64,000 nucleotides of DNA from an uncultured Pseudomonadales bacterium (GCA_964502565.1 CAZCXA010000001.1:3806-67805); one strand, 5' to 3'; counted from the stretch's first letter, positions 1,951 through 57,822 are shown. Notes: generated by a model not told the origin, from the letters alone. Numbers and translations: made by a program.

Positions 1951-2010
1951 AGCTTCTTCTTGCTCATCTTCCTCTTGTTAAGCTTCTTCTTGCTCATCTT
2001 CATCTTGTTC
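1951..2010. repeat. 30-bp perfect-ish tandem duplication (2 copies) spanning the rpoB stop codon
   Basis: agcttcttcttgctcatcttcCtcttgttA / agcttcttcttgctcatcttcAtcttgttC at 1951-1980 and 1981-2010; copy 2 encodes the last 10 codons of the rpoB acidic tail, copy 1 lies just after the stop. Confidence 0.8.
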
Positions 2011-5000
2011 ATCCTTTTCTGACTCATCATCTGACTCATCGTTGTCATCAATCTTCAGATCCTCATCAGCTATTTCTTCTTCATCGATCTCATCATCTAG
2101 ATCATCACCAAGATCCTCGATATCCTTATCATTAAAACCAGGCTCATCCTCATCTTGAGTAAGCTCGGTCTCTCTGACTGTGTTTTCTGACTCAGTTTCT
2201 ATATCTTCTTTTTCTTCGGTTTCTTTATCATCAAGTGATAACTCGTCATCCTCAAGGATGTCTTTGTCGTCAAATGATAAATCCTCATCATCAATAATGA
2301 CCTCCTCAACTTCTTCAGGGTCATCAGCCACTTTCAAGTCCAAAGGAATAATATCTAAAGCCAAAGCCTTGAGCTCACTGATTAAAACCTTGAATGATTC
2401 AGGCACGGTTGGAGCTGGAATATCAATCCCTTTAACCATAGCTTTAAAGGCTTTGGAGCGACCACCGACATCATCAGATTTGATGGTGAGCATTTCTTGA
2501 AGAGTATAAGCAGCCTTATGAGACTCTAAAGCCCAAACCTCCATCTCTCCCACTCTTTGACCACCCATTTGCGCTTTTCCACCCAAAGGCTGTTGAGTCA
2601 CTAAAGAATAAGGTCCGGTAGATCTGGCATGCACTTTATCATCAACCATATGCACCAACTTCAACATGTAGGTAACACCCACCGCTGTTTGCTCGCGATA
2701 AGGCTCACCAGTACGACCATCATAGAGTTGTACTTTACCGCTAGTTGGCAAACCAGCTTTTTCCAACTCTTGCCAAATCTTTGCTTCATCAAAAGTCTCA
2801 AAAACCGGCAAGGCCACCTTGTAACCTAGTTTGTGCGCAGCCCAACCTAAATGGGCTTCCAACAACTGACCTAAGTTCATTCTTGCCAAAACTGATAAAG
2901 GTGAAATGATGACATCAATCGGTGTGCCGTCTTCTAAATAAGGCATATCCGCGACCGGCACAATCTTTGAGATAACACCTTTGTTCCCATGACGTCCGGC
3001 CAACTTATCACCAACCTTGATCTTTCTTTTTTCAGCCACTCTCACTGTCACTTGTTTTAAAACACCGGGATTGAGCTCGTCGTCTTGGTCGCGGTCTAAA
3101 ACTTGCACATCAATCACTGTCCCTTTTTCTCCGTGTGGCATTCTTAAAGAAGTATCACGAACCTCTTTGGATTTTTCACCAAAAATGGCTCTTAACAATC
3201 TTTCTTCAGAACTCAGCTCGGTTTCACCTTTAGGTGCTACCTTGCCTACCAAGATGTCACCAGATTCAATCTCACTACCAATCCTAACAATACCATCTTC
3301 AGTTAAGTTAGCTAAATAGTTTTCTGAAACATTGGGAATATCATTGGTTAACTCTTCTGGACCCAAACGAGTGTCCATCACTTGGGCTTCATGCTCGCTG
3401 ATATAAACCGAGGTTAATAAATCTTCTTTTACTAAACGATCAGAGATCACAATGGCATCTTCATGGCCCAAACCATCAAAAGAAGCATAGGCAATTGTTA
3501 AGTTTGTGCCTAAAGCCAACTCACCACTATCAGAGGCTGGACCGTCAACAATGAGATCACCTTTTTTAACACGGTCGCCGGTATTAACCACCGGCTTTTG
3601 AGAATAACAGGTGCTTTGAGAGGTTCTAACAAACTTTTTAATTTGATAGATTTCTTTACCATCCTCGAACTTTACCCCATTATTATTAGCCAAACCAGCT
3701 TGATAATACTTTTTCGCTGAGTTTAGCTCTGATTTATTAACTGCAACAATGACCTGATTGCCATCAGCATACTCCACCACTCCGCCGTGAACCGCGTCAA
3801 GGGTGCGGTTCATGGAACGAGACACAATACTTTCCATACCGGTTCCGATGATAGGAGCTTCAGCTTTTATCAACGGCACAGCCTGACATTGCATATGACT
3901 ACCCATCAAGGCGCGGTTGGCCTCATCATTGGCAATAAAAGGAATAAGTGAAGCAGAGGTGCCCACCACCTGGCGTGGAGCAATATCAATAAACTGAATC
4001 TCGGTCACAGGACCTTCTTGGAACTGATTATTGTGTCGATAAGCTACCCAATCATTATTTATATAATTATTTTTATCAAGATCTAACTCAGCATGACTAA
4101 TCTTATAATCTTCTTCCTCATCAGCAGACATATATACAATCTCATCAGTTACCTTCATCTTGCCATCTTCCTTCACTACTTTACGATACGGTGCTTCTAA
4201 AAATCCAAAGTCATTAACCCTGACATATAGGGCTAAATAAGTGACTAAACCAATATTGGGACCCTCGGGTGAACGAACCGGACAAATTCTGGAGTACTGA
4301 GAAACATTAATATCTCTCATAGAGAAAGCAGCCCTTTCTCTAGTAACGCCACCGCTCCCCAAAACTGACAAACGACGTAAGTTATCAATTTCTGAGAGAG
4401 GATTGGTTTGATCTAAAATCGCGGATAAACGGTTGCGTCTAAAGAATTGAGAGATTGTAGCAATTAATGGCCGAGCATTAACCAAAGCCGAAGGAGTTAA
4501 GTTAGAATCGGTCTTGGTTAAAGACATTTTTTCTCGAATAGACTTTTCAAGTCTAATTAAACCAATTCTAAAGGCGGTATCTCTCACTAGTTCACCAATG
4601 CGACGCACGCGACGGTTGCTTAAGTGATCAATATCATCAACTTTACCCTGTCCATTTTGCAAACCAATTAAGTACCTAATAGTCTCGATAATATCTTGCT
4701 TATCTAAAACTGTTAACTCTTCATCAACATTAATCTTTAATCTCCGGTTAAGTTTGTAACGACCAACTTTCCCAAGGTTATAACGTCTTTCGTCAAAAAA
4801 ATGTGTTTTAAAATAATCGCGCGCGGTCTCCACAGTGGCTGGTTCACCAGGTCTCAACTTTTCATAAATCTCAATTAAGGCTTGATCTTTTGTATAGGTA
4901 TCATCTTTAGCCAAGGTGTTTTCAATCAAGTTAAAACTGTCTTCTTTTGAGATGTCTTTATAAAGTTCTAAGATCTGCTCATCGGTTTCTAAACCAAAAG

Positions 5001-5583
5001 CTCTGAGTAACACTGTGGCTGGAATCTTGCGTCGGCGGTCGATCTTGACTGTAATCACGTGACGTCGACTAACCGCGATCTCGATCCAAGAACCTCTCAT
5101 CGGTCTTAGTTCTGCCATATAATAAACCTCGCCTGTATTGCGATACTCTTCACCCGAAAAAAAGACTCCTGGAGAACGAACTAGCTGAGTCACGATGCCT
5201 CGCTCAATACCGTTAATAACAAAGGTCCCGACTGGCGTCATCTTAGGAATATCACCTAAAAATACTTCTTGGATGCGACGCTCGCCAGTTCTTTTGTTAA
5301 CTAAAGTAGCCTCAACATAAAGTGAGGTTTCATAGGTTAAGTTTTTAGCCTTTGCTTCTTCAACCAAGTATTTAGGCTCATTAAATCGATAATCGCCGAA
5401 TTTTAATAGCCAATTTTTGCCTGTATAATCCTCGATTCCTTTATCTGCATTCACTTGTTCTAAAGCAGATTTAATGCCATTCTTCAAAAAATCTTCATAA
5501 CTATCAATCTGCAAACCGATTAAATCAAGTTCGGGCAAAACAGTGTGTTGTTTGCCCCAATGTTGTCTTTGACTATTTATCAT
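1978..5583 (-). CDS. rpoB: DNA-directed RNA polymerase subunit beta with ~120-aa poly-acidic C-terminal extension
   Basis: 1201-aa ORF; canonical RpoB motifs throughout (e.g. GDKLAGRHGNKGVISKI, NLGQLLE); AAGGAG SD upstream; C-terminus DDEDLSFDDKDILEDDELSLDD...DEQDEDEQEEA is D/E-rich. Confidence 0.97.
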   Translation of the reverse strand: MINSQRQHWGKQHTVLPELDLIGLQIDSYEDFLKNGIKSALEQVNADKGIEDYTGKNWLLKFGDYRFNEPKYLVEEAKAKNLTYETSLYVEATLVNKRTGERRIQEVFLGDIPKMTPVGTFVINGIERGIVTQLVRSPGVFFSGEEYRNTGEVYYMAELRPMRGSWIEIAVSRRHVITVKIDRRRKIPATVLLRAFGLETDEQILELYKDISKEDSFNLIENTLAKDDTYTKDQALIEIYEKLRPGEPATVETARDYFKTHFFDERRYNLGKVGRYKLNRRLKINVDEELTVLDKQDIIETIRYLIGLQNGQGKVDDIDHLSNRRVRRIGELVRDTAFRIGLIRLEKSIREKMSLTKTDSNLTPSALVNARPLIATISQFFRRNRLSAILDQTNPLSEIDNLRRLSVLGSGGVTRERAAFSMRDINVSQYSRICPVRSPEGPNIGLVTYLALYVRVNDFGFLEAPYRKVVKEDGKMKVTDEIVYMSADEEEDYKISHAELDLDKNNYINNDWVAYRHNNQFQEGPVTEIQFIDIAPRQVVGTSASLIPFIANDEANRALMGSHMQCQAVPLIKAEAPIIGTGMESIVSRSMNRTLDAVHGGVVEYADGNQVIVAVNKSELNSAKKYYQAGLANNNGVKFEDGKEIYQIKKFVRTSQSTCYSQKPVVNTGDRVKKGDLIVDGPASDSGELALGTNLTIAYASFDGLGHEDAIVISDRLVKEDLLTSVYISEHEAQVMDTRLGPEELTNDIPNVSENYLANLTEDGIVRIGSEIESGDILVGKVAPKGETELSSEERLLRAIFGEKSKEVRDTSLRMPHGEKGTVIDVQVLDRDQDDELNPGVLKQVTVRVAEKRKIKVGDKLAGRHGNKGVISKIVPVADMPYLEDGTPIDVIISPLSVLARMNLGQLLEAHLGWAAHKLGYKVALPVFETFDEAKIWQELEKAGLPTSGKVQLYDGRTGEPYREQTAVGVTYMLKLVHMVDDKVHARSTGPYSLVTQQPLGGKAQMGGQRVGEMEVWALESHKAAYTLQEMLTIKSDDVGGRSKAFKAMVKGIDIPAPTVPESFKVLISELKALALDIIPLDLKVADDPEEVEEVIIDDEDLSFDDKDILEDDELSLDDKETEEKEDIETESENTVRETELTQDEDEPGFNDKDIEDLGDDLDDEIDEEEIADEDLKIDDNDESDDESEKDEQDEDEQEEA

Positions 5584-5903: not shown

Positions 5904-6893
5904 TCAACGCAAGTACCTATTTATATTATTGTTATGTTCTTCAAGAGTTCTGGCAAAATGAACATTGCCTTGTTTATCATGAATATAAAAAAGATACTCT
6001 GTGGAGCGAGGATTTAGTGAAGCCGTAATCGCCTCTAAGCCAGGATTGCAGATAGGACGAGGGGGCAATCCTGGATTTAGATAGGTGTTAAACCTTGAGT
6101 TAAGCTGTTTGTCTTCAGCCAAAGGAGTTGCCCACCAACTTCCAATCGTTTCATCATAACCCTTAGCATACTGTAAGGTAGCATCTACTTGTAAAGGCAT
6201 ACCTATCTCTAGCCTTTTCCATAAAATATTAGAGACCTGCTGTAACTGCTCTGATCCTCTTGCCTCTCTTTCTAAGATAGAAGCCATTGTTAACAGCTCA
6301 TTAAACGAGTAGTTAGATTGCTCAATCTGAGTTTGCAAAGAAGCAATCTTTTTTTCAAAAGTATTCTGCATTAAATTAATCAGGGCTTGAGTCGTAACTT
6401 CTTTTGGAACCAAGTATGTGTCAGGGAAAAGCTGGCCTTCAAGGGCAACTGTCTGAGCTAAAAACTCTTCCTGATTATAATTAATCAACGAGTATTTTTC
6501 TAAACTTTGAGCAATCTCTTCTCTTCTCATCCCTTCGGGAAAAGTAATCCAGATATCATCTGTGCCATCACTTAATATCTCTAAAATTGTGGCTACATCC
6601 ATCGCAGGGGAAAGCTCAAAACTGCCAGCTTGAATCTTAAAATTATCTTGATTTAACTGATAGTAAATCTTAAAAACATAGCTATTTTTAATTAAATTTT
6701 TCTTTTTTAATTTATCGCCGATTAAAGCAACCGGCTCACCTTTAGCAATAACAAATCTTTCTAACTGGTTGTTGGTTGAATCAGGAGCCTGAAGCAAAGA
6801 GAAGCCAAAAACTATTACTGAAGTTAAAACAAAGGCTAAGATTGCGCCGACAATTAATACCAAACGCAAAATTTTATTTTTTTTTAATTTCAT
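5904..6893 (-). CDS. mltG: Endolytic murein transglycosylase MltG (YceG family)
   Basis: N-terminal TM helix then YceG-like domain; conserved position directly after ruvX as in Firmicutes (alaS-ruvX-mltG synteny). Confidence 0.8.
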   Translation of the reverse strand: MKLKKNKILRLVLIVGAILAFVLTSVIVFGFSLLQAPDSTNNQLERFVIAKGEPVALIGDKLKKKNLIKNSYVFKIYYQLNQDNFKIQAGSFELSPAMDVATILEILSDGTDDIWITFPEGMRREEIAQSLEKYSLINYNQEEFLAQTVALEGQLFPDTYLVPKEVTTQALINLMQNTFEKKIASLQTQIEQSNYSFNELLTMASILEREARGSEQLQQVSNILWKRLEIGMPLQVDATLQYAKGYDETIGSWWATPLAEDKQLNSRFNTYLNPGLPPRPICNPGLEAITASLNPRSTEYLFYIHDKQGNVHFARTLEEHNNNINRYLR

Positions 6894-7110: not shown

Positions 7111-7509
7111 TTATTTTTGCTCCTCAAGCCACTGTTCTAAAATATAAGCAGCTGCATAATGATCAAGTTTTTTTGGTAAAGGTTTTTTTCTTAGTTTAAA
7201 CCTGTTCTCGACTTCTTTAGAGGACAAGGTCTCGTCAACATAAATAATTGGCTGAGATATCTTCAGTTGTAACTGTTGACCAAATTGACGCGTCTTTTCA
7301 GCAGTTTCTTTTTCAGAAATACCCAAGATTACTTGAGTAACTTGGTGTTGAGTACAAACTTGAGCAATCTGACGGACTGCTTCAGCCTCTTCTTGGTAAT
7401 CAATGACTACCAAAGGCACTGCCAGCGGACCCTGAGAAACTGCCAAACCAATTCTTTTGGTACCAAAATCAATCGCAAGTAGTTTCTGGTTCTGGTTATC
7501 AAAAAACAT
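7111..7509 (-). CDS. ruvX: Putative pre-16S rRNA nuclease / Holliday-junction resolvase-like YqgF
   Basis: 132 aa, N-terminal LAIDFGTKRIGLAVS RNase H-like motif typical of YqgF/RuvX. Confidence 0.8.
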   Translation of the reverse strand: MFFDNQNQKLLAIDFGTKRIGLAVSQGPLAVPLVVIDYQEEAEAVRQIAQVCTQHQVTQVILGISEKETAEKTRQFGQQLQLKISQPIIYVDETLSSKEVENRFKLRKKPLPKKLDHYAAAYILEQWLEEQK

Positions 7510-7533: not shown

Positions 7534-8499
7534 TTATTCTCTTACTAACTGGGCTGTGACCACTCCCCTTCTTAAATAGGTTCCTTCTGGCACGCAGGTA
7601 ACCAGTTTTAACTGCTGACTGCTGTAATCTTGAGACAAGATATATGTATCGCTCGGCTTAACCTCTGTTTTATCAATCACTGCATAAGTATATTTAACAT
7701 CGCCGTAAGTTAAAAAAACTCGATCACCTGGCTCAAGTGTCATAATTGTACTAAAAATTGTGTTATAACGTCTGGGGTTAGTCTCTTTAGGATTGTAAAA
7801 CTGTCGTAACAAAGAATGACCAAAAACAACTGGTGCGCCTGGTTTTCCAGGTAATGATGTGCCTGGATATTGGATTAGGCTTTCATCAAGATTAGTGCCA
7901 CCAATTTTAACCGTGGCGTTATAAACCTCAAGTTTGGGGATCTCCAAAACATACTCTCCGACTTGCTTAGACAACAAGCTCGTGCGGTTAACTAGGTCGA
8001 TCACCACTTGATCTTCAAACCAGTTTGATAAATTGGTGTAATCCAACTCAGCATCAACAATAACTGGACCTCGTCTAACTTGACCCATTTCCTGCGTAAT
8101 ATCTCCCACCATAGTAGTTTGCGCCACCACCAACGGAGTCATGCTTAAAATTTTATCTTGTGGGATGGGCGCAATTAGGGTGGGTGTTGTTGATAAATTT
8201 TTTAAATAGAAGCTAGCGATCGGCATCACTGCGCTTCCCAATAAAAACAAACCGACCACAATAAAAAAGATCGGTACAAAACTTGCCCCAAATCTAACAA
8301 CCCTGGGTATTGAAAGTTTTGCCTGACGGCAGTGTTGATCGTCAATATTCTGTTCCACCTGCTCGGTTACCATAAGTCTGGTTAGTTTTGCTGAAACCTC
8401 AGCCTCAACCTCCTCATAGGTACCAAACTTTAGCAAAGCTTCTCGATACAGTTTGATTAACTCTTGACGATCAATGCCCAAGTTATCGTGTTTTGACAT
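7534..8499 (-). CDS. Sortase-family transpeptidase with N-terminal cytoplasmic segment and TM anchor
   Basis: TM helix (FVPIFFIVVGLFLLGSAVMPIA) followed by sortase fold signatures: VVFGHSLL (His), TLEPGDRVFL, LVTCVP (TLxTC Cys), RRGVV (Arg). Confidence 0.7.
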   Translation of the reverse strand: MSKHDNLGIDRQELIKLYREALLKFGTYEEVEAEVSAKLTRLMVTEQVEQNIDDQHCRQAKLSIPRVVRFGASFVPIFFIVVGLFLLGSAVMPIASFYLKNLSTTPTLIAPIPQDKILSMTPLVVAQTTMVGDITQEMGQVRRGPVIVDAELDYTNLSNWFEDQVVIDLVNRTSLLSKQVGEYVLEIPKLEVYNATVKIGGTNLDESLIQYPGTSLPGKPGAPVVFGHSLLRQFYNPKETNPRRYNTIFSTIMTLEPGDRVFLTYGDVKYTYAVIDKTEVKPSDTYILSQDYSSQQLKLVTCVPEGTYLRRGVVTAQLVRE

Positions 8500-8604
8500 A
8501 GTTGGAACTAAAAGTTTAACTTAAAAAGCGCGAGGCGGAAAAAAATTGGTAACGAGCTTACCTCGCTTTTTAATTTTTAGCTTTTTACCTCTAACTTTTT
8601 TTTG

Positions 8605-10887
8605 CTATTCTTTAATTTTAATCGAGATGCGATTAGAGTCATTGGGTAAAAACTTAAAAAATCGTCCAGAAAAAGAAGGTGAGTGGGAAAATGTGACTTG
8701 ATCAATGGTTTCTTCTTCTCTTAAGAGTGAGCTAGCTTGATCAAAGGAAACGCCGATCAACCTTGCTTGAAAATCTTGCTCAGCTAGCTCGGCTCGACAT
8801 TTTCCTGAAATCTCAACCTCTAGCCGAGTTTGAGAGGCGTCTTCTTCATCATCTATAATCCTTGAAATAACATTTAGGCTGTCATCGATAAAAAGATAGT
8901 TTTCTGGGATATCATTTTCTAAAACCTTTTTAGCTAAAGTTAGTAAATCTCTTGTGGTGTAACTTAAACCCTCTACAGCCAAAGTTAAGGATAAAGAAAC
9001 ATTTTCAAGTTCCTCACCAACCTCGTCGCTATATTTTTGCTCAACAATTTTATAATTTTCAGTGGGCACAATATAAATATCCTGACTGAAATTATCTTCT
9101 AACTTTTCTCGAGCTTGTTTTAGTAATCTTTGTTTTAAGTTAGCTAATAGCTCTTTGTGGTCAGCATCGGCCACAACCCTTATTTCTCGACTTGAGCCTC
9201 CAGTAAAATCACTTTCTGTTCGAGCAGAGTAGGTGTTATCACTAAAATCAGCAATTTTTAAATCTGTTTTTTGGCTTATGTTGCCTTCCACCCCAATTTC
9301 TCGAGCAGTCACCTTGGCACTCTTTTTGCCAAACTCCTTCATCTCTGCCTCACCACCTTTGGCTTCTTCGATAGAAGCAGCAGGTACTGTAATCTCCTCG
9401 TCTAACTCAAACTCGAGATCCTCGGTTTTTAAGATCGTGTTTTTAGCAAATGTTTTTTCTTCACTCGTCTTGTTAAAAATAACCACCAAACCTTTAGCTT
9501 TTTCTCCGACTGGCTTTACTCCGGTTGTTTGAATAGTATCTTTATCTGAAACCTCCTCTGTGATAACTTCTGCTTTAAGCAGACTGTTAACTGGGTCTGA
9601 TTGCGCAACTGAAGAACTCAAACTAATCACAGAGTTTTTACTTAAATTTTTTGTTTGAGGAGCAATCTGGACCTCAACCTGATAGTTCATTTTAAGCAAA
9701 AAGTAAAATACTAACACTGAGATGACTAAGCCTAAAACAACACTGAGAATTATAACTGGCTTGAGAGCTAATTTTTTCTTCTTATTTTTTTTACCAGCAG
9801 TGTCAATCTCAACAAAACTCGAACCTTGTTTTTCATCAGGTTTTTCAAGTTCAACAGGCCTGAAGTTGTTAACCTCTTCGTCTTGAGCTGTTTTCAATAA
9901 CGATTGAGTCGTTGCTTCGGTTTTACGCGCAAAGTCTGGTTGCTCAAGCTCAGGTTGTTCAGTTGGCACTCTTGGGCTAGTTTGTGCGCTGTTGATCGAG
10001 TCTGAGCTTAAAGCATCTGCCAGTTCTTGTGAATCAACTGGTTGACTCATCTGGGAAAACTGCACTGCTGACACTAAACCAGCCGATCCAGCTTGAACCG
10101 AATCAATCTCTGCATCATGAGGAATTAAACCTTTTTGTTTAGCAACTACCTCCCCATAATATTTAGTCACGATGTCCAAAAGCTGGTCTGAAGTGATAAT
10201 CTCAATAATAGGTTTCTGCACAAAGTTAAAATCTTGTGTCCAGTTTAATGAAAACAGCTGTTGCTGATAAAGTATTAACTTTTCAGGATCAATCACGGCT
10301 GAAAGCAAGATAATGTTAGGTGGAAGCTTGATGCCATTGGTTGCAAAGTTCTGCTCCAAGCGAGCTAAAGCTTCCTGAAGATCAGATACGATATCCTCAG
10401 ATCGCCCCACTGATAAAGAACCAGCCACTTTGCCTTGGCGTACAATCATTAAATCTAAGGATTGAGCGCCAATATATAAAACAATTGAAGAGAGAAAGCT
10501 GTTATTCTTAAGCAAGTGCTGAAGTGCGGCCTCGGTGGTTGACACAAACCCAAGTGGTTTTAAAGATAGCGACTCGGTAAGATTCTTAAGGTCTTTTTCA
10601 TGCTCTGCTGAAATCTTGTTGTTCTTGATCCAACTCGGCTCAAAGGCAAACAATATTTCGTCAGTTTCTTCTGATCTATCACCTAAATCCTGCAAACTTT
10701 CATCCATTTGTACGAGCTGTTCTTCAGTACTATTGTAATATCTTACTTTTGATTTACTTAAGAGAATAATTTTTTGTTCAAAAACTTGCCACAGACTAGA
10801 ATGAATCGATTGATCGGTTATTAAAGAAAGAATAAACAGGTTCTTTTTATCTGGTTTTTTTTTGGAGAAAAGATTTGGCAGGCCCAT
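8605..10887 (-). CDS. Hypothetical 760-aa bitopic membrane protein: N-terminal FtsA/PilM-like actin-fold domain, low-complexity linker, single TM, ~370-aa extracytoplasmic domain
   Basis: N-terminal LFILSLITDQSIHSSLWQV... and IGAQSLDLMIVRQGKVAGSLSVGRSEDIVSDL resemble phosphate-1/phosphate-2-like regions of FtsA/PilM actin-fold proteins; TM at ILSVVLGLVISVLVFYFLL; domain call is by eye only. Confidence 0.4.
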   Translation of the reverse strand: MGLPNLFSKKKPDKKNLFILSLITDQSIHSSLWQVFEQKIILLSKSKVRYYNSTEEQLVQMDESLQDLGDRSEETDEILFAFEPSWIKNNKISAEHEKDLKNLTESLSLKPLGFVSTTEAALQHLLKNNSFLSSIVLYIGAQSLDLMIVRQGKVAGSLSVGRSEDIVSDLQEALARLEQNFATNGIKLPPNIILLSAVIDPEKLILYQQQLFSLNWTQDFNFVQKPIIEIITSDQLLDIVTKYYGEVVAKQKGLIPHDAEIDSVQAGSAGLVSAVQFSQMSQPVDSQELADALSSDSINSAQTSPRVPTEQPELEQPDFARKTEATTQSLLKTAQDEEVNNFRPVELEKPDEKQGSSFVEIDTAGKKNKKKKLALKPVIILSVVLGLVISVLVFYFLLKMNYQVEVQIAPQTKNLSKNSVISLSSSVAQSDPVNSLLKAEVITEEVSDKDTIQTTGVKPVGEKAKGLVVIFNKTSEEKTFAKNTILKTEDLEFELDEEITVPAASIEEAKGGEAEMKEFGKKSAKVTAREIGVEGNISQKTDLKIADFSDNTYSARTESDFTGGSSREIRVVADADHKELLANLKQRLLKQAREKLEDNFSQDIYIVPTENYKIVEQKYSDEVGEELENVSLSLTLAVEGLSYTTRDLLTLAKKVLENDIPENYLFIDDSLNVISRIIDDEEDASQTRLEVEISGKCRAELAEQDFQARLIGVSFDQASSLLREEETIDQVTFSHSPSFSGRFFKFLPNDSNRISIKIKE

Positions 10888-10967
10888 ATTGATAATTATA
10901 CAATAGATTTATTACTTAGTGAAAAATTGAGTAGAGTTTTACCACACTAGGCTTAAAACCACTGGTG

Positions 10968-11039
10968 CCTTAAAAATATTGTTGTCTTAAAAATATTGGT
11001 GCCTTAAAAATATTGACAGTGAGTTCTTAAAAAATTATT
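10968..11039. repeat. Four copies of CTTAAAAATATTG at ~17-18 bp periodicity in the promoter region of the 760-aa gene
   Basis: ccttaaaaatattg(10968) / tcttaaaaatattg(10986) / ccttaaaaatattg(11002) / tcttaaaaaattatt(11025, degenerate). Confidence 0.7.
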
Positions 11040-11107
11040 CCAAGTTACTCCTGGAACACCTGTTTTCTGGTGCTGGAGCGCGCTCTTGCGAGTTTTGAGG
11101 TCTGAGT

Positions 11108-12979
11108 TTAACTGCTAAATCTTGCGTAAACCCTTCTCACTCCAGAACCAATTGATTTTTCTTTAAAAATCTCGATCTTATGGATCTTGCCGGTTGAGCT
11201 AACATGAGGACCCCCGCATAACTCTTTTGAGATAGGCTTATCTTGACCAATCTCATACACATCTACTTGGTCAGGATAGCGTTCAACAAAAAACGCCAAA
11301 GCTCCGGATTGTAATGCGTCTTGTTTTAGCATCTGTTTTTTTTGAACAGGCAAATCTAGCGCGATCCATTGATTAACTAAGTCTTGAACCTGCTGAACCT
11401 CTTGTTTGGTTAAGGCAGAGCTGTGAGAAAAATCAAATCTCAAACAATCCTGAGTAATTTGCGATCCTTTTTGCTGGACATGGTCACCCAACACCTGCCT
11501 TAAAGCAGTGTGTAATAAGTGAGTGGCAGTGTGATAAGCCGTGGTAGTATCAGAGTTGTCAGCTAAGCCACCCTGAAACTTTTGCGAGGCGCCAGTTTTT
11601 GACAACTTGCTATGCTTGGCTTGAGCTGTAACAAACTCCTGTCGCAAATTTTCCTCAAGAGTAATATTGTTTTGCTGAGCTTCTTCAATGGTTAGCTCAA
11701 ACGGAAAGCCATAGGTTTGGTACAAATCATACGCCATCTCGCCGGTTAAAACTTTATTATCAGCAAAAATCTTGTTAAGTCTTTTTAATCCTTTGCCAAG
11801 TGTTTTTTTAAATTTTTCAACTTCTTGATGAATTAAGGTTTCAATAGCCAACTGATCTTGCTTTAATAAAACATTGGCTTGGGTATAAATCTCGGCCACC
11901 ACAGGCACTAAAGATAATAAGAACTCAGAATCTTCAAAAAGATGCTGACTGTATCTAACGGCTCGTCTAATTAAACGCCTCACTAAGTAGCCCTGATCCT
12001 TGTTACTAGGTTTAACCCCATCATTAATTAACCAAACAGCTGCCTTGATGTGATCAGCAATGATGCGAAAGTTTGCTGGGCTATTGGCATATTCTTGATT
12101 TGTTTCTTGTTCAATTTTTCGAATAATTGGTAGAAATAAATCGGTTTGAAACACATCAGGCTGATGATGACTGGCAGCTAAAATCCTTTCCAAACCTCCT
12201 CCAAAATCAATATTTTTCTGAGGCAGGTCCTTAAACCCGGTTGCTGTTTTTTGATACTGCATAAAAACGCTGTTACCGATCTCTAAAAATCTGCCACAGT
12301 CACAGTTAACATGGCAAGGTTGATCAGCAAACTTGGAGTTTTCATGAAACTTAAACTCGGCTCCAAAATCATAAAACACCTCGCTGTCAGGACCACCGGG
12401 TTCACCAACCGGCATCTCATCAGGATCGCCACTGCGAGACCACCAGTTTTTATCAGCCGAGTAGTAAAAAATGCGATTGTCATTTAAACCTTCTTGGTAG
12501 GGATTTTTTCCAACCCCGGCGGTGACACCTTTACTAGCAAACAACTCCTGCCAAATCTTTACCGACTCCTCATCTGCATCAACTTGATATTTATCACTAC
12601 CAGCAAAAACAGTCACACACAACCTTTCAACAGGCAAACCAACTTCCTCAACTAGAAACTTGAAAAACCAAGTTAACTGCTCTGTTTTAAAATAATCACC
12701 AAATGACCAGTTGCCCAACATCTCAAAAAAAGTAGTGTGGCGATTGTCACCCACTTCTTCAATATCAAGCGCTCGAAAACAACGCTGAGAGTTAACAACT
12801 CTTTTTCCCTGAGGATGATCTGCTCCTAGCAGATATGGCATCATCGGTTGCATGCCTGCGGTGGTAAAAAGGGTACTGGGATCATTTTCAGGCACCAACA
12901 AAGATGAAGGCACAACAACATGGTCAAGGTTTTTAAAATAAGTTAGGTATTTTTGTCGAAGCTGATTTGAGCTGAGCAC
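11108..12979 (-). CDS. alaS: Alanine--tRNA ligase, short form (catalytic + tRNA-binding + editing domains; C-Ala domain absent)
   Basis: FTTAGMQP, HTTFFEMLGNWSFGDYFK class-II AlaRS signatures; editing-domain HxxxH...CGGPHV present; only 623 aa. Confidence 0.93.
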   Translation of the reverse strand: MLSSNQLRQKYLTYFKNLDHVVVPSSLLVPENDPSTLFTTAGMQPMMPYLLGADHPQGKRVVNSQRCFRALDIEEVGDNRHTTFFEMLGNWSFGDYFKTEQLTWFFKFLVEEVGLPVERLCVTVFAGSDKYQVDADEESVKIWQELFASKGVTAGVGKNPYQEGLNDNRIFYYSADKNWWSRSGDPDEMPVGEPGGPDSEVFYDFGAEFKFHENSKFADQPCHVNCDCGRFLEIGNSVFMQYQKTATGFKDLPQKNIDFGGGLERILAASHHQPDVFQTDLFLPIIRKIEQETNQEYANSPANFRIIADHIKAAVWLINDGVKPSNKDQGYLVRRLIRRAVRYSQHLFEDSEFLLSLVPVVAEIYTQANVLLKQDQLAIETLIHQEVEKFKKTLGKGLKRLNKIFADNKVLTGEMAYDLYQTYGFPFELTIEEAQQNNITLEENLRQEFVTAQAKHSKLSKTGASQKFQGGLADNSDTTTAYHTATHLLHTALRQVLGDHVQQKGSQITQDCLRFDFSHSSALTKQEVQQVQDLVNQWIALDLPVQKKQMLKQDALQSGALAFFVERYPDQVDVYEIGQDKPISKELCGGPHVSSTGKIHKIEIFKEKSIGSGVRRVYARFSS

Positions 12980-12988
12980 GATAAAAAA

Positions 12989-13522
12989 TTATTTAATTAT
13001 AGAACTTACTGCTAGGTAAGATGACCGAGTTTTTTTATAAAAAAAATTTTTCATTAAAACTTGCGCGCCTATAGCCAATCCACCAAAAAAAACATCTCCA
13101 AGTAAGGTGTTGCGATAAAAAGGCAAGGCTACGAAATAACAACTCAATAATCCAGCTAAAGTTCGTGGATACCAAAAAAACCAAACTCCAAGATTAGAAA
13201 GCATAAAAAAACAAAAACTGGCCAGCGGTAAAAATAACACCTGTTTTTTAACCTGACCTTTTGCCAAACGACCCCAAAAATAATAACTGGCAAAACCTAG
13301 ATAAGTAAAGATAAAGCCTGGGTAAAAACCAGAGAAAAACTTGTCAAAAACGATAATTTGACCAAAAAAAAGTAAAATGTTTGATTGAAAAAACCCAAAA
13401 CTGCCTACCGGACTAAAGTTTGGTAAAACCTTTAAAAAACGAGTCAAAAAAACAATAACAGTTAAACCGAGTTTTTTTAAATAAGGATGCCGATTATTGT
13501 GAGGGGATGAAAAGTTATGCAT
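12989..13522 (-). CDS. Polytopic membrane protein (5-6 TM, ~177 aa); possibly ECF-transporter S-component-like
   Basis: Hydrophobic helices throughout; size and topology fit S-components; adjacent to DUF4430-like gene. Weak. Confidence 0.3.
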   Translation of the reverse strand: MHNFSSPHNNRHPYLKKLGLTVIVFLTRFLKVLPNFSPVGSFGFFQSNILLFFGQIIVFDKFFSGFYPGFIFTYLGFASYYFWGRLAKGQVKKQVLFLPLASFCFFMLSNLGVWFFWYPRTLAGLLSCYFVALPFYRNTLLGDVFFGGLAIGAQVLMKNFFYKKTRSSYLAVSSIIK

Positions 13523-14981: not shown

Positions 14982-15626
14982 TTAAAACCTGACATAAACC
15001 GTAATCTGCTTCAAGTTAGTTTTACCTCTTTGATCAATCGCTTCAACCGTTAAGGTTGTAACTCCTTCCTTGGGCAAGTAAACCTCGGTACGAAAGGTGC
15101 CATCTGGGTTAAGTGCGACCGGTTGTGCGTTCACGCTGACCATTGACTCAACATCTGTTTGTCCGGTCACCACAATTTGCGATGAAACAAACTCGTTGTC
15201 ACTGGGGGAATAGATCTCCAACCTTGGGGGTTTATTTAAGTTATGCCATTGCCAAGCTACATAACCCAATAAAGAAAAAAAGATCGTGGCGACCACCACC
15301 CCAACCAAGGTCACGGAATGCCATAAACGCTGTTTTCTAACCACTGGGCTGATAAAATCTCGTGACTGAAGTTGACCCTGGTTATCCTCCTGAAAATCTC
15401 GTCTTAGCAAGGAAAGTAAAGACTTGTTATCTAACTCTAGAACACGAGCATAAGCCTTAATATATCCTTTGACAAAAGTACTTGGAGGTAGTTGGTCAAA
15501 CTGATTGTTTTCTAAATATTGCAAAAACTCCTTCTTAATCTTGGTTAATTGAGACATGCGTGCTAAAGTGATGCTTTGCCTCTGCCGTTCCTCAGCTAGA
15601 ATTTGACCAACTTTTTTAGTTTGCAT
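14982..15626 (-). CDS. RodZ-like HTH (XRE) membrane protein with C-terminal beta-rich domain
   Basis: N-terminal HTH (VGQILAEERQRQSITLARMSQLTKIKKEFLQYLE), central TM (VTLVGVVVATIFFSLLGYVAW), C-terminal domain; architecture of RodZ. Confidence 0.55.
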   Translation of the reverse strand: MQTKKVGQILAEERQRQSITLARMSQLTKIKKEFLQYLENNQFDQLPPSTFVKGYIKAYARVLELDNKSLLSLLRRDFQEDNQGQLQSRDFISPVVRKQRLWHSVTLVGVVVATIFFSLLGYVAWQWHNLNKPPRLEIYSPSDNEFVSSQIVVTGQTDVESMVSVNAQPVALNPDGTFRTEVYLPKEGVTTLTVEAIDQRGKTNLKQITVYVRF

Positions 15627-17100: not shown

Positions 17101-17496
17101 GGGGATGTATTGCTTTGACGTAACAGCTCTTTAACAACTGCAGACCATCTTTGATCAAAAGATGTTAAACAGGATCAAAAAAACATCTGTCAACAAAATC
17201 GTTAACAGAATAGCACAAGGTGTCCAAAGTTTCTTTGGCACCACTGCTCCTGCTTACGCCTACGCGTAATTAGGCATCTATTAGTTTCTTCTCACTGATG
17301 AGAGCTGATAGGTGAAAACCCAGTCAGTGTGACAACTTACTTGCCTCATATTGCAAGTAAGTCTAAGACAAAAAAATATGGCTGTGAAAAAAAAGTTTGT
17401 TTGTTCACTTTTTTCACTTGCGCAAAAACAAACTATGTCTGTAGTGGTTGTTGACTAGTTAGTTAGCGGACAGGGGTTCATTACCCCTCATCTCCA
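17101..17496 (+). ncRNA. ssrA: tmRNA (SsrA), ~396 nt, tag ORF ending ...APAYAYA-UAA
   Basis: 5' GGGGAUGUAUUGCUUUGACG (compare E. coli GGGGCUGAUUCUGGAUUCGACGGG); 3' GGACAGGGGUUCAUUACCCCUCAUCUCCA (compare GGACGCGGGUUCAACUCCCGCCAGCUCCACCA); acceptor stem GGGGAUG/CAUCUCC contains the G3-U70 alanine identity pair; T-arm AGGGG-UUCAUUA-CCCCU; in-frame GCU CCU GCU UAC GCC UAC GCG UAA at 17246-17269. Confidence 0.85.
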
Positions 17497-17556
17497 CAAA
17501 TTATTACTCAGTTTAAGCCTGTTCTTCTTCTGTGTCCTCCGTGTTAAAATTGCATC

Positions 17557-47742: not shown

Positions 47743-48423
47743 TTATAAAAGCAACAACCCAATTCCTATCAAGGCTAGGCCTGAAGTTAGCCATTTAAGC
47801 CAGCTTAGTGGCCCTGATTGAGGCAACTCTTCAGGAAGTACAGGTTGTCCGCCCTTAGTGGTTGTGCTTTGAGTAGCTGTGGGGATTGGGGTGATAGTTG
47901 AACTTACAGTATATGTTCCCGCAATATTGCGAGCACATTGCTCATCGGTCGCTAATAAATTATCGCCTTCTCCAGTGGGTAAGATGTTGGAGTCCTGATG
48001 ATCAGCGCTACTACAGCGGAATGCAAGCGTAATATTGCCCGAGCTTATCTTGGGACTAACGGTAATTGTTGCCATCTTGCCACTGCCGGTCACTCCGCTG
48101 GTTTTGTCTAAGCCTAAAGTACCAGTAATTGCCAGCTCACCGGCAACGGTAGTATCTGTGCTAATGTTGTCAAAAAAATCATTAGCAGTAATGCCAACAA
48201 TATTAACATGATCGGTATTATAGGTGACTATGGCTACTGCAGAGTCTACTTCTGCGCCTTCTGTGTCAATTCTTACCTCAATCTCGGTTGTTCCAGCGAT
48301 GGTGCCGGTACTGGGAGAGAACAACAGTCTAGCAGCTAAAGCTGGTTTAACAAAACCGTGTGCAACAACCGCAAATGATAAAAAACTTATTATTAAAATG
48401 GGCAGTTTTAATCTTGTTTTCAT
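47743..48423 (-). CDS. Secreted cohesin-like beta-sandwich protein with C-terminal hydrophobic anchor
   Basis: Signal peptide MKTRLKLPILIISFLSFAVVAHG; IEVRIDTEGAEVDSAVAIVTYNTDHVNIVGI resembles the cohesin core (…FTLSYDPSVLEVV…); T/S-rich linker; C-terminal LPEELPQSG + hydrophobic tail. Confidence 0.45.
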   Translation of the reverse strand: MKTRLKLPILIISFLSFAVVAHGFVKPALAARLLFSPSTGTIAGTTEIEVRIDTEGAEVDSAVAIVTYNTDHVNIVGITANDFFDNISTDTTVAGELAITGTLGLDKTSGVTGSGKMATITVSPKISSGNITLAFRCSSADHQDSNILPTGEGDNLLATDEQCARNIAGTYTVSSTITPIPTATQSTTTKGGQPVLPEELPQSGPLSWLKWLTSGLALIGIGLLLL

Positions 48424-55898: not shown

Positions 55899-56768
55899 TT
55901 ACAGTTCTTCAATCTCAATTTCAGGAGAAATTTCTTGATGATCGTCGATTAGCTGTAAATATTTTTCAGTAGTAGTGATACGTTTGTGACCTACTAACTG
56001 TGATACATATACCAAAGGCGTGCCAGCTCTCAACTGCTCAACAATGAAGGTGTTGCGCAGATCATTAACAATAGCATCCTGAATACCAGCAAGCTTAAAA
56101 TGACGATTAATGGCTGCTCTGATATTTCTTACTAAAAAGGGACGGCAAGTCTTGGTTAAAAAGATGCATTTTTCCTTAGCTCTAGGACGTACTTTTAAAT
56201 AATCCATCAATGCTTGTTTAGCTGCTTTATTCAATGGTACTTTTCGACCACCTCGGCTCTTATAGGGTTGAACTTGAATAATACCTCTTTCCAGATCTAC
56301 ATCATCGGTTTTTAGGTTTGCTAACTCACTAATGCGCATTCCTGTTTGCAAAAGTAACTCTACCACAGCAAAAATTCTAACATCTGACCGACAAGCATCT
56401 CGCAGAGCTCGGTACTCCATTTTTGATAAAAAACGAGATGGTTTTTGCTCGAATTTAGGATGTGAAATTTCAGAGGCAGGATTGTTCTCAACTAAACCTT
56501 CGTTCTCTAAAAATCTAAAAAAAGATTTTATCGAGTTGATTTTTCTAGAGATCGATTTATTAGCATAGCGCCGACTCTTTAGTAGCTCCTTAAATTGATT
56601 GATATCTTCATGAGTAACTTCCGAAGCCAGTTCCTTCCCTTGATCTAGAGCATACTCAGCCAACTGTTCTAAGTCTTTAACATAAGCAATCACTGTAGCC
56701 GTGGCCTTGCCGTTTGACTCTAAATATTGACGATATTTTTGTTGTGCAACTGTTAGAGAAATAGCCAT
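55899..56768 (-). CDS. Tyrosine site-specific recombinase (XerC/XerD-like)
   Basis: Core-binding + catalytic domains; R...HxxR (LVGHKRIT)...Y (EKYLQL) catalytic residues; 289 aa without phage-type arm-binding domain. Confidence 0.85.
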   Translation of the reverse strand: MAISLTVAQQKYRQYLESNGKATATVIAYVKDLEQLAEYALDQGKELASEVTHEDINQFKELLKSRRYANKSISRKINSIKSFFRFLENEGLVENNPASEISHPKFEQKPSRFLSKMEYRALRDACRSDVRIFAVVELLLQTGMRISELANLKTDDVDLERGIIQVQPYKSRGGRKVPLNKAAKQALMDYLKVRPRAKEKCIFLTKTCRPFLVRNIRAAINRHFKLAGIQDAIVNDLRNTFIVEQLRAGTPLVYVSQLVGHKRITTTEKYLQLIDDHQEISPEIEIEEL

Positions 56769-56921
56769 ACTAGAATCTTCCTAATGTGTAAATATAATAT
56801 AATGAGTAGATAGAAAAGTATTAAATTGTGAAATTATTCCAATAATATTTATCTATAAGATATAAGCAACGTAGCTTATAATAACATAATATAGAAAATT
56901 TTCTAGAGTAAGATTTAATAG

Positions 56922-57284
56922 ATGAAGAACATAGTGTATCACCCCCTAGCTATTCTTATGACCACTGTTTTGGTAATTATTGCAATTTTTAGTCTACGCA
57001 ATAATCTAAAAAGGCTTTCCCTATCTCAAGAAAACTTAAAAAGTGCCCAACTGGCGTATGAAAAAGTAAAACAGGATACAGCAAAGGACAAGGCGTTATT
57101 AAACCAGTTTCAGCATCCTTTTGTTCAAGAAAAAATTACAAGAAATGAGTTGCTAAGACAGAAAAACAATGAAATATTGATCAAACTCCCTGATATTGTT
57201 CTTGAACAAAAAAAACAAGATCCGATCCCGCAAAAAACAGTTTTTGAACAGTGGAAAAAAGTGCTCGAGATAGGCAAGCAGTAA
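56922..57284 (+). CDS. FtsB/DivIC-like septum-formation initiator (TM + coiled coil)
   Basis: N-terminal TM then coiled-coil; size and architecture only. Confidence 0.35.
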   Translation: MKNIVYHPLAILMTTVLVIIAIFSLRNNLKRLSLSQENLKSAQLAYEKVKQDTAKDKALLNQFQHPFVQEKITRNELLRQKNNEILIKLPDIVLEQKKQDPIPQKTVFEQWKKVLEIGKQ

Positions 57285-57434
57285 AAAACTCCTTTATCAC
57301 ACAAAAACAGCCACAACCACCACAAGAAGAAAAGGTGGTGAAAAAATTAATATTTTTCACACTCCTTGTGAAAAATTGAAGAATCTTGAAAAACCTAAGA
57401 AGTATTTAACAAAGCTTCACTCTCTTAAAACTTG

Positions 57435-57508
57435 TAGCAGGGGTGAGACTTGAACTCACGACCTTCGGTTTATGAATCCGATGCTCTAACCAACTGAGCT
57501 ACCCTGCC
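57435..57508 (-). tRNA. tRNA with anticodon CAT (elongator Met or lysidine-Ile2 type)
   Basis: Minus strand GGCAGGGTAGCTCAGTTGGTTAGAGCATCGGATTCATAAACCGAAGGTCGTGAGTTCAAGTCTCACCCCTGCTA; cloverleaf with G1-U72, anticodon loop TTCATAA. Confidence 0.8.
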
Positions 57509-57682
57509 ATAAAAAATCACCTAAATCAATCTTGAAAAAAATATTGATAATTGATTTTAAAGAAAAAATGTATTTTATTTAAACAGACAGTTCAACTGAT
57601 GATTAACCAAAAAAATACCGTTGGTTGATTATACCAAATATTATCTTGTATAATAAACCTTTGAAACAACCCAATTCAACAA

Positions 57683-57751
57683 CGCGGGATAGTGTACGGT
57701 GCACGCAAGGCTCATAATCTTGCAGGCTAGGTTCGACTCCTAGTCCCGCAA
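57683..57751 (+). tRNA. Initiator-type tRNA-fMet (CAT) with compact D/anticodon region (69 nt)
   Basis: CGCGGGA...GGCTCATAATC...GGTTCGACTCC...TCCCGCAA closely parallels E. coli tRNA-fMet (CGCGGGG...GGCTCATAACC...GGTTCAAATCC...CCCCGCAA) including C1xA72 mismatch; D-stem GTGT/ACGC, 7-nt D-loop. Confidence 0.75.
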
Positions 57752-57822
57752 CAAATTTTTTTTGAAAAAAAATACTGACTGGTCAGTGATTAAATATTCC
57801 TCATTATTGAGCCTAAACTTAC

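Follow-up and report, generated by a model that had tools for sequence, protein, structure and literature searches.

A fused FtsA-like and baseplate-J-like membrane protein adjoining a sortase in Microgenomatia

The stretch of DNA considered here, 64,000 nucleotides catalogued under an uncultured Pseudomonadales bacterium (GCA_964502565.1 CAZCXA010000001.1:3806-67805; hereafter the window), encodes a 760-residue protein, referred to as X, which is followed on the same strand by a sortase, the two genes lying between alaS and ruvX. X is shown to be the fused form of a two-gene module, consisting of an FtsA-like protein and a transmembrane (TM) protein with a baseplate-J-like ectodomain, that is found across many lineages of the candidate phyla radiation (CPR), and the protein in the window is the form that belongs to the CPR group Microgenomatia. 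Comparison of the two forms shows that in Microgenomatia the module became one gene and gained a sortase partner, its actin-like part being cut to a 245-residue core that is followed by a disordered tether of ~115 residues. An initial annotation of the window had described X and the sortase as inserted into a conserved alaS-ruvX-mltG cluster. This was incorrect, because FtsA-like and TM/baseplate-J-like genes hold the same slot in many CPR lineages.

Domains of the fused protein and its separate relatives

X was modelled with AlphaFold2 using a 32-sequence alignment, and two regions, residues 13-258 and 374-760, are folded with confidence in the model (Table 1). The N-terminus is placed in the cytoplasm because a KKNKKKK stretch precedes the TM helix. 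The model agrees with the layout given for X in the initial annotation, i.e., an actin fold, a single TM segment and a large ectodomain, the latter being 359 aa long versus an estimated ~370. The linker between the folded parts (residues 259-373) differs in length and sequence between aligned homologues, and it carries a conserved motif, [ST]FG[VF]P, in which the G is present in 29/31 homologues and the F in 22/31. This motif is likely a docking site. The X protein of the window is an outlier in this respect; a relative that is 69% identical to it (P0002) keeps SFGVP.

The secondary structure of the N-terminal domain runs beta-beta-beta-alpha-beta-alpha-beta-alpha twice, which is the signature of the ASKHA fold. 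Foldseek comparison with the PDB returned PPX/GppA, PilM, EutJ and ParM at E values of 5e-9 to 1e-6. The domain was also modelled alone (pLDDT 89, pTM 0.84), and the ranking of fold matches was unchanged when the full-length model was used. Thus, the actin/ASKHA fold that had been suggested for this part of X is supported at the level of fold. At the level of sequence, nothing meaningful was obtained for the domain from Pfam, NCBIfam, a phmmer search of the PDB or a search of the PDB with a 21-sequence profile, which found neither an FtsA sequence nor any other entry. X of the window matched neither the FtsA models (TIGR01174, PF14450) nor those for PilM (TIGR01175, PF11104), and in Pfam as a whole no family was above threshold, the only matches being a weak one to Wzz on the TM region and a weak one to Baseplate_J at residues 478-568. 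The Wzz match (residues 378-448, 22.7 bits vs a cutoff of 25.5, E 1.3e-4) was set aside, as it probably reflects only the topological pattern of a TM segment plus a strand.

Apart from fold comparison, it is profile-profile comparison that recognises the domain. Alignment with four standalone FtsA-like proteins by hhalign gave a probability of 96.7% (E 4.3e-10, 223 columns) and revealed a W...F...P motif, close to the C-terminal end of the domain, that is common to the fused and standalone proteins. Two long gaps in this alignment coincide with subdomains 1C and 2B of the FtsA-like proteins. The size of the domain, ~245 residues, and a secondary-structure string without inserts likewise indicate that 1C (the SHS2 insert) and 2B are missing. 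Column counts over 31 fused homologues revealed no conservation of the DxGxxxxK, DxGGGT and GG motifs (phosphate 1, phosphate 2 and adenosine, respectively); the standalone proteins of loci L006 and L046 retain DIGT..K, DxGGGTTD and GGG. Because the ATP motifs are not conserved among these homologues, we infer that the domain would serve as a nucleotide-independent scaffold. Despite the loss of 1C, 2B and the ATP motifs, the domain is strongly conserved.

The ectodomain contains three nearly invariant motifs, TTGxKxVGEKAKG, NKT and GGSSRE. Its similarity to the Baseplate_J family (PF04865) is below the gathering score in the window protein (13.7 vs 21.1 bits), with weak matches in 10/32 family members (best E 2.3e-4) and weak matches to the GlxA barrel in 5/32. 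Short relatives match PHROG_6, 'baseplate wedge', over ~80-90 residues, and the window protein has no PHROG match. One barrel domain appears to be common to the ectodomain of X, baseplate J wedge proteins and GlxA. The resemblance to fused PilM-PilN/O proteins proposed in the initial annotation does not hold, since the ectodomain is like the baseplate-J/GlxA barrel rather than PilN/O and X lacks linkage to genes of type IV pili. A role of X as a sortase substrate was also ruled out, there being no LPXTG-like motif preceding a TM segment; a conserved C-terminal 'hP....RI' motif lies within a folded strand and is present as well in both short forms whose sequences were read (L038, L046).

A database search yielded 38 homologues of X, mostly of 700-775 aa, including four distant C-terminal matches of 542-637 aa. 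They are unnamed or called 'hypothetical', and one is from Candidatus Shapirobacteria. Searching a library of 1.84 billion entries with a profile of the N-terminal domain gave 1531 representatives, 982 of them at E <= 1e-30; in all 150 matches listed, the domain is N-terminal, mostly in proteins of 700-820 aa.

The relatives of the ectodomain include proteins of 514-708 aa that lack the actin domain and have a small cytoplasmic N-terminal domain before the TM segment instead. A profile search with the ectodomain found such short forms in Berkelbacteria, Woykebacteria, Peregrinibacteria, Gracilibacteria and Dojkabacteria, and the module as a whole was found in Microgenomatia, Saccharibacteria-labelled, Berkel-, Peregrini-, Gracili- and Doudnabacteria loci. 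Eleven unfused loci were examined (L006, L038, L039, L046-L053). All of them have a separate upstream gene encoding a product of 365-417 aa; it is adjacent in ten loci, and in L050 two small open reading frames (ORFs) intervene. Pfam FtsA is matched by nine of the 11 products, most of which also match PilM_2; the L038 product matches PilM_2 only, below threshold, and that of L039, with no Pfam match, was assigned by its alignment with the others. Among five products scanned against NCBIfam, the ftsA model TIGR01174 was the best in 5/5, at 60-103 bits vs a cutoff of 175.85, and the standalone proteins score higher with the FtsA model than with the PilM model. The unfused pair is directly followed by ruvX in 6/11 loci, with mltG next in all four loci that were checked, and in L047 alaS is just upstream of the pair. 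None of the 11 loci has a sortase next to the unfused protein. In L051 (Peregrinibacteria) the genes immediately preceding the pair are alr, one for a peptidase M15, and ddl, and in L052 (Gracilibacteria) the gene after the pair encodes 432 aa and matches Pfam Bactofilin faintly.

Three further observations were made in these lineages. Just 5' of the FtsA-like gene of L038, which is labelled Saccharibacteria, lies a gene for an 804-aa homologue of VirD4/TraG-like coupling proteins (1958-4372; DUF87, TraG-D_C, TrwB). T4SS_pilin genes are found a few kb downstream in L006. In TM7x, the annotated ftsA does not adjoin ftsZ.

The conserved locus, the sortase and a candidate substrate

Forty loci from species-representative genomes were compared with the window by BLASTP of the window proteins against the locus ORFs; where credibly labelled, these are from Woesebacteria, Pacebacteria or the 'Patescibacteria group'. 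Gene order is nearly invariant: (ftsK or yqeY), rodZ-like, small ORFs, alaS, X, sortase, ruvX, mltG, rpoB. The order alaS-X-sortase-ruvX was present in 37/37 testable Microgenomatia loci, i.e., those with downstream sequence present, which include 35 distinct loci. X identities across the loci with sortase adjacency are about 25% to 54%, and the sortase remains directly 3' of X down to the low end of this range, the two ORFs often abutting or overlapping. Nearly all of the related loci have the RodZ-like gene 5' of alaS, where it usually comes immediately after ftsK or yqeY, and mltG is shifted by 2-5 kb in L002, L012, L014 and L018.

In the window itself, the ORF list, Pfam and NCBIfam reproduced the ORF positions and minus-strand order of the initial annotation, and the identities of YceG/MltG, RuvX, sortase and a short-type AlaRS are backed by both Pfam and NCBIfam (Table 1). 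Further upstream of alaS are DUF6580, DUF4430, YtxH-like, RodZ-like, yqeY, ftsK and RNase J genes. The GC fraction of 0.37-0.40 across 7.5-11 kb is the same as that of the flanks, and no mobile-element flanking repeats were found around X and the sortase, the repeats in the region being short AT-rich chance ones. Because its GC content is like that of the neighbours and such repeats are absent, the X-sortase pair does not resemble a recent insertion; together with the stable synteny, these features rule out arrival by a mobile element. The initial annotation had named two findings that would count against its proposal, an N-terminal domain without the actin/ASKHA fold, or a lack of conservation of the pair with flanking mobile-element remnants. 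The model of the domain has this fold, and the pair was found to be conserved across related genomes and free of such remnants.

Table 1. Coordinates of the genes, protein regions and putative regulatory elements in the window
Feature	Position (nt)	Strand	Residues	Details
rpoB	1978-5583	minus		1201 aa
mltG (YceG endolytic transglycosylase)	5904-6893	minus		Pfam YceG E 2e-74; TIGR00247
ruvX (YqgF)	7111-7509	minus		Pfam RuvX E 5e-27; 24 nt 3' of sortase
Sortase	7534-8499	minus		321 aa; Pfam Sortase E 4e-18
Sortase, catalytic domain	7543-7947	minus	185-319	
Sortase, TM segment		minus	~70-95	
Sortase, N-extension	8302-8499	minus	1-66	
Gene X	8605-10887	minus		760 aa; FtsA/PilM-like actin fold, disordered linker, TM helix, baseplate-J-like ectodomain
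X, ectodomain	8608-9684	minus	402-760	beta-rich N-terminal part, then alpha/beta modules; confident AlphaFold2
X, baseplate-J/gp47 and GlxA-type beta-barrel similarity	9172-9570	minus	~440-572	boundaries approximate
X, sole TM helix	9685-9765	minus	375-401	AlphaFold2 helix; hydrophobic stretch LKPVIILSVVLGLVISVLVFYFLL
X, disordered cytoplasmic linker	9769-10113	minus	259-373	polybasic juxtamembrane end; pLDDT ~30-40
X, position of linker motif [ST]-F-G-[VF]-P-I	9961-9981	minus	303-309	window copy T-S-P-R-V-P-T
X, minimal ASKHA/actin-fold domain	10114-10851	minus	13-258	two beta-beta-beta-alpha-beta-alpha-beta-alpha halves; without 1C and 2B
alaS-X intergenic elements	10895-11058	minus		within 220-nt spacer
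Promoter-like TTCACT-17-TATAAT	10895-10923	minus		ends 8 nt before X ATG
Three head-to-tail 17-nt repeats	10965-11015	minus		CAATATTTTTAAGRCAM; between hairpin and promoter-like site
Terminator-like hairpin with T-run after alaS	11036-11058	minus		
alaS, conserved 5' neighbour of X	11108-12979	minus		short 623-aa form; NF002436 640 bits
RodZ-like protein (HTH_25, TM, Ig-like)	14982-15626	minus		Pfam HTH_25 E 1e-19, Glucodextran_B E 2e-11
Candidate sortase substrate	47743-48423	minus		226-aa secreted protein; signal peptide, Thr/Ser/Pro-rich linker, C-terminus QPVLPEELPQSGPLSWLKWLTSGLALIGIGLLLL

The sortase of the window scores 65.8 bits with Pfam Sortase (PF04203; cutoff 26.6). None of the NCBIfam class models was reached (best 20-36 bits vs cutoffs of 160-166), and the generic TIGR01076 gave 38.0 bits vs a cutoff of 39.35; the solved sequences closest to it carry class C or fimbria-associated labels (e.g., 5k9a, 8t28). 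Among six orthologues and paralogues, H228, C302 and R311 do not vary, which at the level of sequence shows the His-Cys-Arg triad to be intact. A linker of ~90 residues carries a conserved LDYTNLSNWF motif. The cytoplasmic N-terminal segment of ~70 aa described in the initial annotation is present as a hydrophilic extension of ~65 aa before the TM segment, but it is a feature of a subclade, occurring where X identity is >= ~31% and being absent from distant Microgenomatia loci (L003, L005, L032, L037 and L040-L043). In the Shapirobacteria locus L005, a second, shorter sortase (215 aa, 12525-13172) lies right after mltG. Meheust et al. (2019; PMC6744442) described a sortase family that is present in nearly all Microgenomates and only patchily distributed among other CPR groups, a pattern that matches the one at the X loci.

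A probable substrate of this enzyme, predicted from its C-terminal signal, is encoded within the window, which had initially been thought to hold no clear LPXTG substrate. The ending of the candidate (Table 1) has a motif and TM segment without a basic tail, LPEELPQSG-P..WLKW-TSGLALIGIGLLLL, and is conserved: 28 homologues have LP[QEV][SA]G or LAVAG, then WLKW and a TM segment. The conserved ending, LPQSG...WLKW...SGLALIGIGLLLL, ends in LLLL and looks like a distinct sorting signal of Woesebacteria-like CPR. The homologues are unnamed or 'hypothetical', except for one that NCBI lists as a 'cohesin domain-containing protein' (Ca. Woesebacteria). Because this LPQSG-type family lies in the same window, ordinary anchoring is the simplest role for the sortase, at odds with the earlier preference for a function other than classical LPXTG anchoring. 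A 777-aa ORF on the plus strand (57823-60156) has a weak, below-threshold Dockerin_1 match at residues 719-765. Taken with the cohesin-like LPQSG protein, this ORF hints at a small system in which cohesin and dockerin would mediate surface display.

According to the initial annotation, X and the sortase apparently shared one minus-strand transcription unit with alaS and ruvX. That the genes are co-directional is certain; a single operon is unproven, as hairpins and a promoter-like site occupy the spacers. The 17-nt repeats between alaS and X read CAATATTTTTAAGGCAC / ...GACAA / ...GGCAC in perfect register, with a degenerate fourth copy. Against a chance expectation of 0.16 matches, three were found. 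None of the 53 related loci contains the repeat, which may constitute a lineage-specific operator array. In the 105-nt spacer between X and the sortase, a GC-rich hairpin is followed by a T-run, so that co-transcription of these two genes is unproven in the window. Because promoter- and terminator-like sites are no more numerous than in shuffled sequence, a scan for such sites cannot decide the operon structure.

Elsewhere in the window, alaS was observed to start with GTG, and its product matches only positions 2-434 of the 847 in TIGR00344, the C-terminal part of canonical AlaRS being missing. The rpoB product has an extremely Asp/Glu-rich C-terminal tail of ~130 residues and, at 1201 aa, exceeds the 1093-1152 aa of its counterparts in related loci. 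A tmRNA is located at 17101-17499. A tyrosine recombinase gene (Phage_integrase plus SAM-like domain, 55899-56768) adjoins two tRNA-Met genes on opposite strands (57434-57508, minus; 57683-57752, plus), and this region (55899-57752) could represent a XerC/D-like function or an integration hotspot.

Weighing the possible functions

X is proposed to act independently of nucleotides as a transenvelope scaffold in the machinery of wall growth or division, coupled to a housekeeping sortase, a function to which we give about an even chance of being correct. A partner from the cytoskeleton or the divisome would bind to the cytoplasmic pseudo-actin domain and the [ST]FGVP motif of the linker. The ectodomain would be active on the side of the wall, near MltG and the sortase, and the sortase would anchor LPQSG-type surface proteins where new peptidoglycan forms. 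By analogy with PilM-PilN, the cytoplasmic domain of the bitopic partner probably keeps the soluble actin-like protein of unfused lineages at the membrane, and the TM helix and covalent tether of X would replace this non-covalent attachment. An envelope or division role, as had also been envisaged in the initial annotation, fits the neighbours mltG, RodZ-like and ftsK, which are conserved, and the ddl/alr or bactofilin-like genes of other lineages. It is because of these wall-related genes (mltG, RodZ-like, ftsK; alr/ddl/M15; faint Bactofilin) that peptidoglycan growth or division is favored over pilus assembly.

Several observations weigh against the scaffold proposal. Three of the conserved neighbours, alaS, ruvX and rpoB, are not envelope genes, and part of the synteny may therefore be an inherited order with no functional meaning. 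The copy of X in the window is without the F-G of the linker motif, reading SPRVP. X has no sortase signal of its own, and its C-terminal 'LP' is also found in L038 and L046, neither of which has a sortase neighbour. The likeness of the ectodomain to baseplate J spans only ~130-155 residues, and the gap between X and the sortase contains the hairpin and T-run described above. Finally, no description of the X family or of the unfused pair was found in the CPR/Patescibacteria literature, the 'Pam' pilus operon of CPR being a different system (bioRxiv 10.64898/2026.03.03.709456).

A competing proposal, which we regard as unlikely, is that X is the real FtsA of its lineage, the tether of the FtsZ ring having been made membrane-integral by fusion, with the unfused FtsA-like gene as the only FtsA elsewhere in CPR. 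For the standalone proteins, true orthology to FtsA is plausible. Their scores are nevertheless far under the equivalog cutoff of TIGR01174, and the fused domain is without 1C and 2B and has degenerate ATP motifs. Subdomain 2B of FtsA is reported to bind the C-terminal peptide of FtsZ. X was not found next to ftsZ in a dcw cluster, there being no ftsZ in the 64-kb window, in the annotated related loci or in those fetched for comparison.

Whether X and the sortase belong together at all was also considered, as a generic housekeeping sortase might simply reside in an inherited housekeeping block. In favor of such independence are the lack of an adjacent sortase at the unfused module (11/11 loci), the hairpin with T-run separating the two genes in the window, the distance of 39 kb to the candidate substrate gene, and the second sortase just after mltG in L005. 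This explanation is nonetheless judged to be quite improbable, since adjacency was maintained in 37/37 loci over the whole range of X identities, often with abutting or overlapping ORFs, while gene order elsewhere in these loci varies, as illustrated by the displacement of mltG in L002, L012, L014 and L018. Furthermore, an adjacent sortase accompanies the fused form in every fused locus and the unfused form in none. The solved sequences nearest to the sortase are of pilus type, which would suit a pilus or fibre assembly platform in which X is a PilM-PilN-like fusion and the sortase polymerises pilins. This is very improbable: none of the genes pilB, pilC, pilT, pilO or those for pilins adjoins X in ~50 loci, the ectodomain is not PilN/PilO-like, the standalone proteins score better as FtsA than as PilM, and the sortase reaches 36 bits vs a class C threshold of 160. 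In addition, the sole candidate substrate lacks a YPKN-type pilin motif and has a relative annotated as cohesin-like. The NCBI name given to relatives, 'baseplate J/gp47 family protein', would suggest that X arose by domestication from a phage tail or contractile injection system, an origin that is scarcely credible given that a single domain is shared and that the gene context is one of housekeeping functions.

Relation to known systems and biological significance

The ASKHA/actin fold is common to FtsA and the N-terminal domain of X. The amphipathic helix of FtsA is replaced in X by a genuine TM helix and an ectodomain of 359 aa, and X also differs from FtsA in having no 1C, no 2B, no conserved ATP motifs and no match to FtsA models. 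The fold is likewise of the PilM type, but in contrast to PilM-PilN systems X has no linked genes for a pilus ATPase, platform protein, pilin, PilN or PilO in the window and ~50 loci, its neighbours being alaS, ruvX and mltG. With baseplate J/gp47 proteins (PF04865, PHROG_6) and the GlxA barrel (PF21110), X appears to share one domain only. Unlike the wedge proteins of contractile tails, X is cellular, membrane-anchored and encoded in a housekeeping cluster; no tail, sheath, tube or spike genes were found near it, and the neighbours are housekeeping genes at all loci. The sortase has the catalytic domain of Gram-positive sortases (PF04203, classes A-F), along with their His-Cys-Arg residues, (L)xTC motif and N-terminal membrane anchor, and, as in Gram-positive bacteria, a plausible substrate with LPxSG and a TM segment is predicted to be encoded here. 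It departs from classes A-F in that no class model fits, in its LDYTNLSNWF linker and subclade N-extension, and in its invariable place after X. The concept is shared with MreB-RodZ and MreB-MreC of the elongasome, in which an actin fold connects through the membrane with a beta-rich bitopic protein that faces the wall, in a setting of wall synthesis; a RodZ-like gene is present in the X cluster too. Thus, the combination of an actin-fold protein and a bitopic partner is already known (PilM-PilN, FtsA-FtsN, MreB-RodZ); what is new is the baseplate-J-like partner, the natural joining of this partner to a minimal pseudo-actin, and an obligate link with a sortase.

In public databases, the short unfused relatives are named 'baseplate J/gp47 family protein', as was found for one short form in NCBI, or 'hypothetical protein', and the sole named fused relative is a 'hypothetical protein'. 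The former name wrongly implies prophage content in CPR genomes. In a broader proposal, which we consider doubtful, the FtsA-like and bitopic baseplate-J-like pair would be an unrecognised core component of division or wall growth that replaces the FtsA tether, and in Microgenomatia its ATP-free pseudo-actin would couple division cues to MltG and to anchoring by the sortase.

CPR/Patescibacteria make up a large share of bacterial diversity, and how these tiny cells divide and build their envelopes is almost unknown. The X module is among the few uncharacterised sets that join presence in many CPR lineages, a stable position beside mltG and ruvX, and a recognisable cytoskeletal fold. The natural fusion serves as a Rosetta stone, indicating that FtsA-like and baseplate-J-like membrane proteins act together, and the unfused genes offer a concrete, testable pair for culturable Saccharibacteria. 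The N-terminal domain of X, which is devoid of 1C, 2B and the ATP motifs yet conserved, also bears on the question of FtsA/PilM-type proteins as pure scaffolds.

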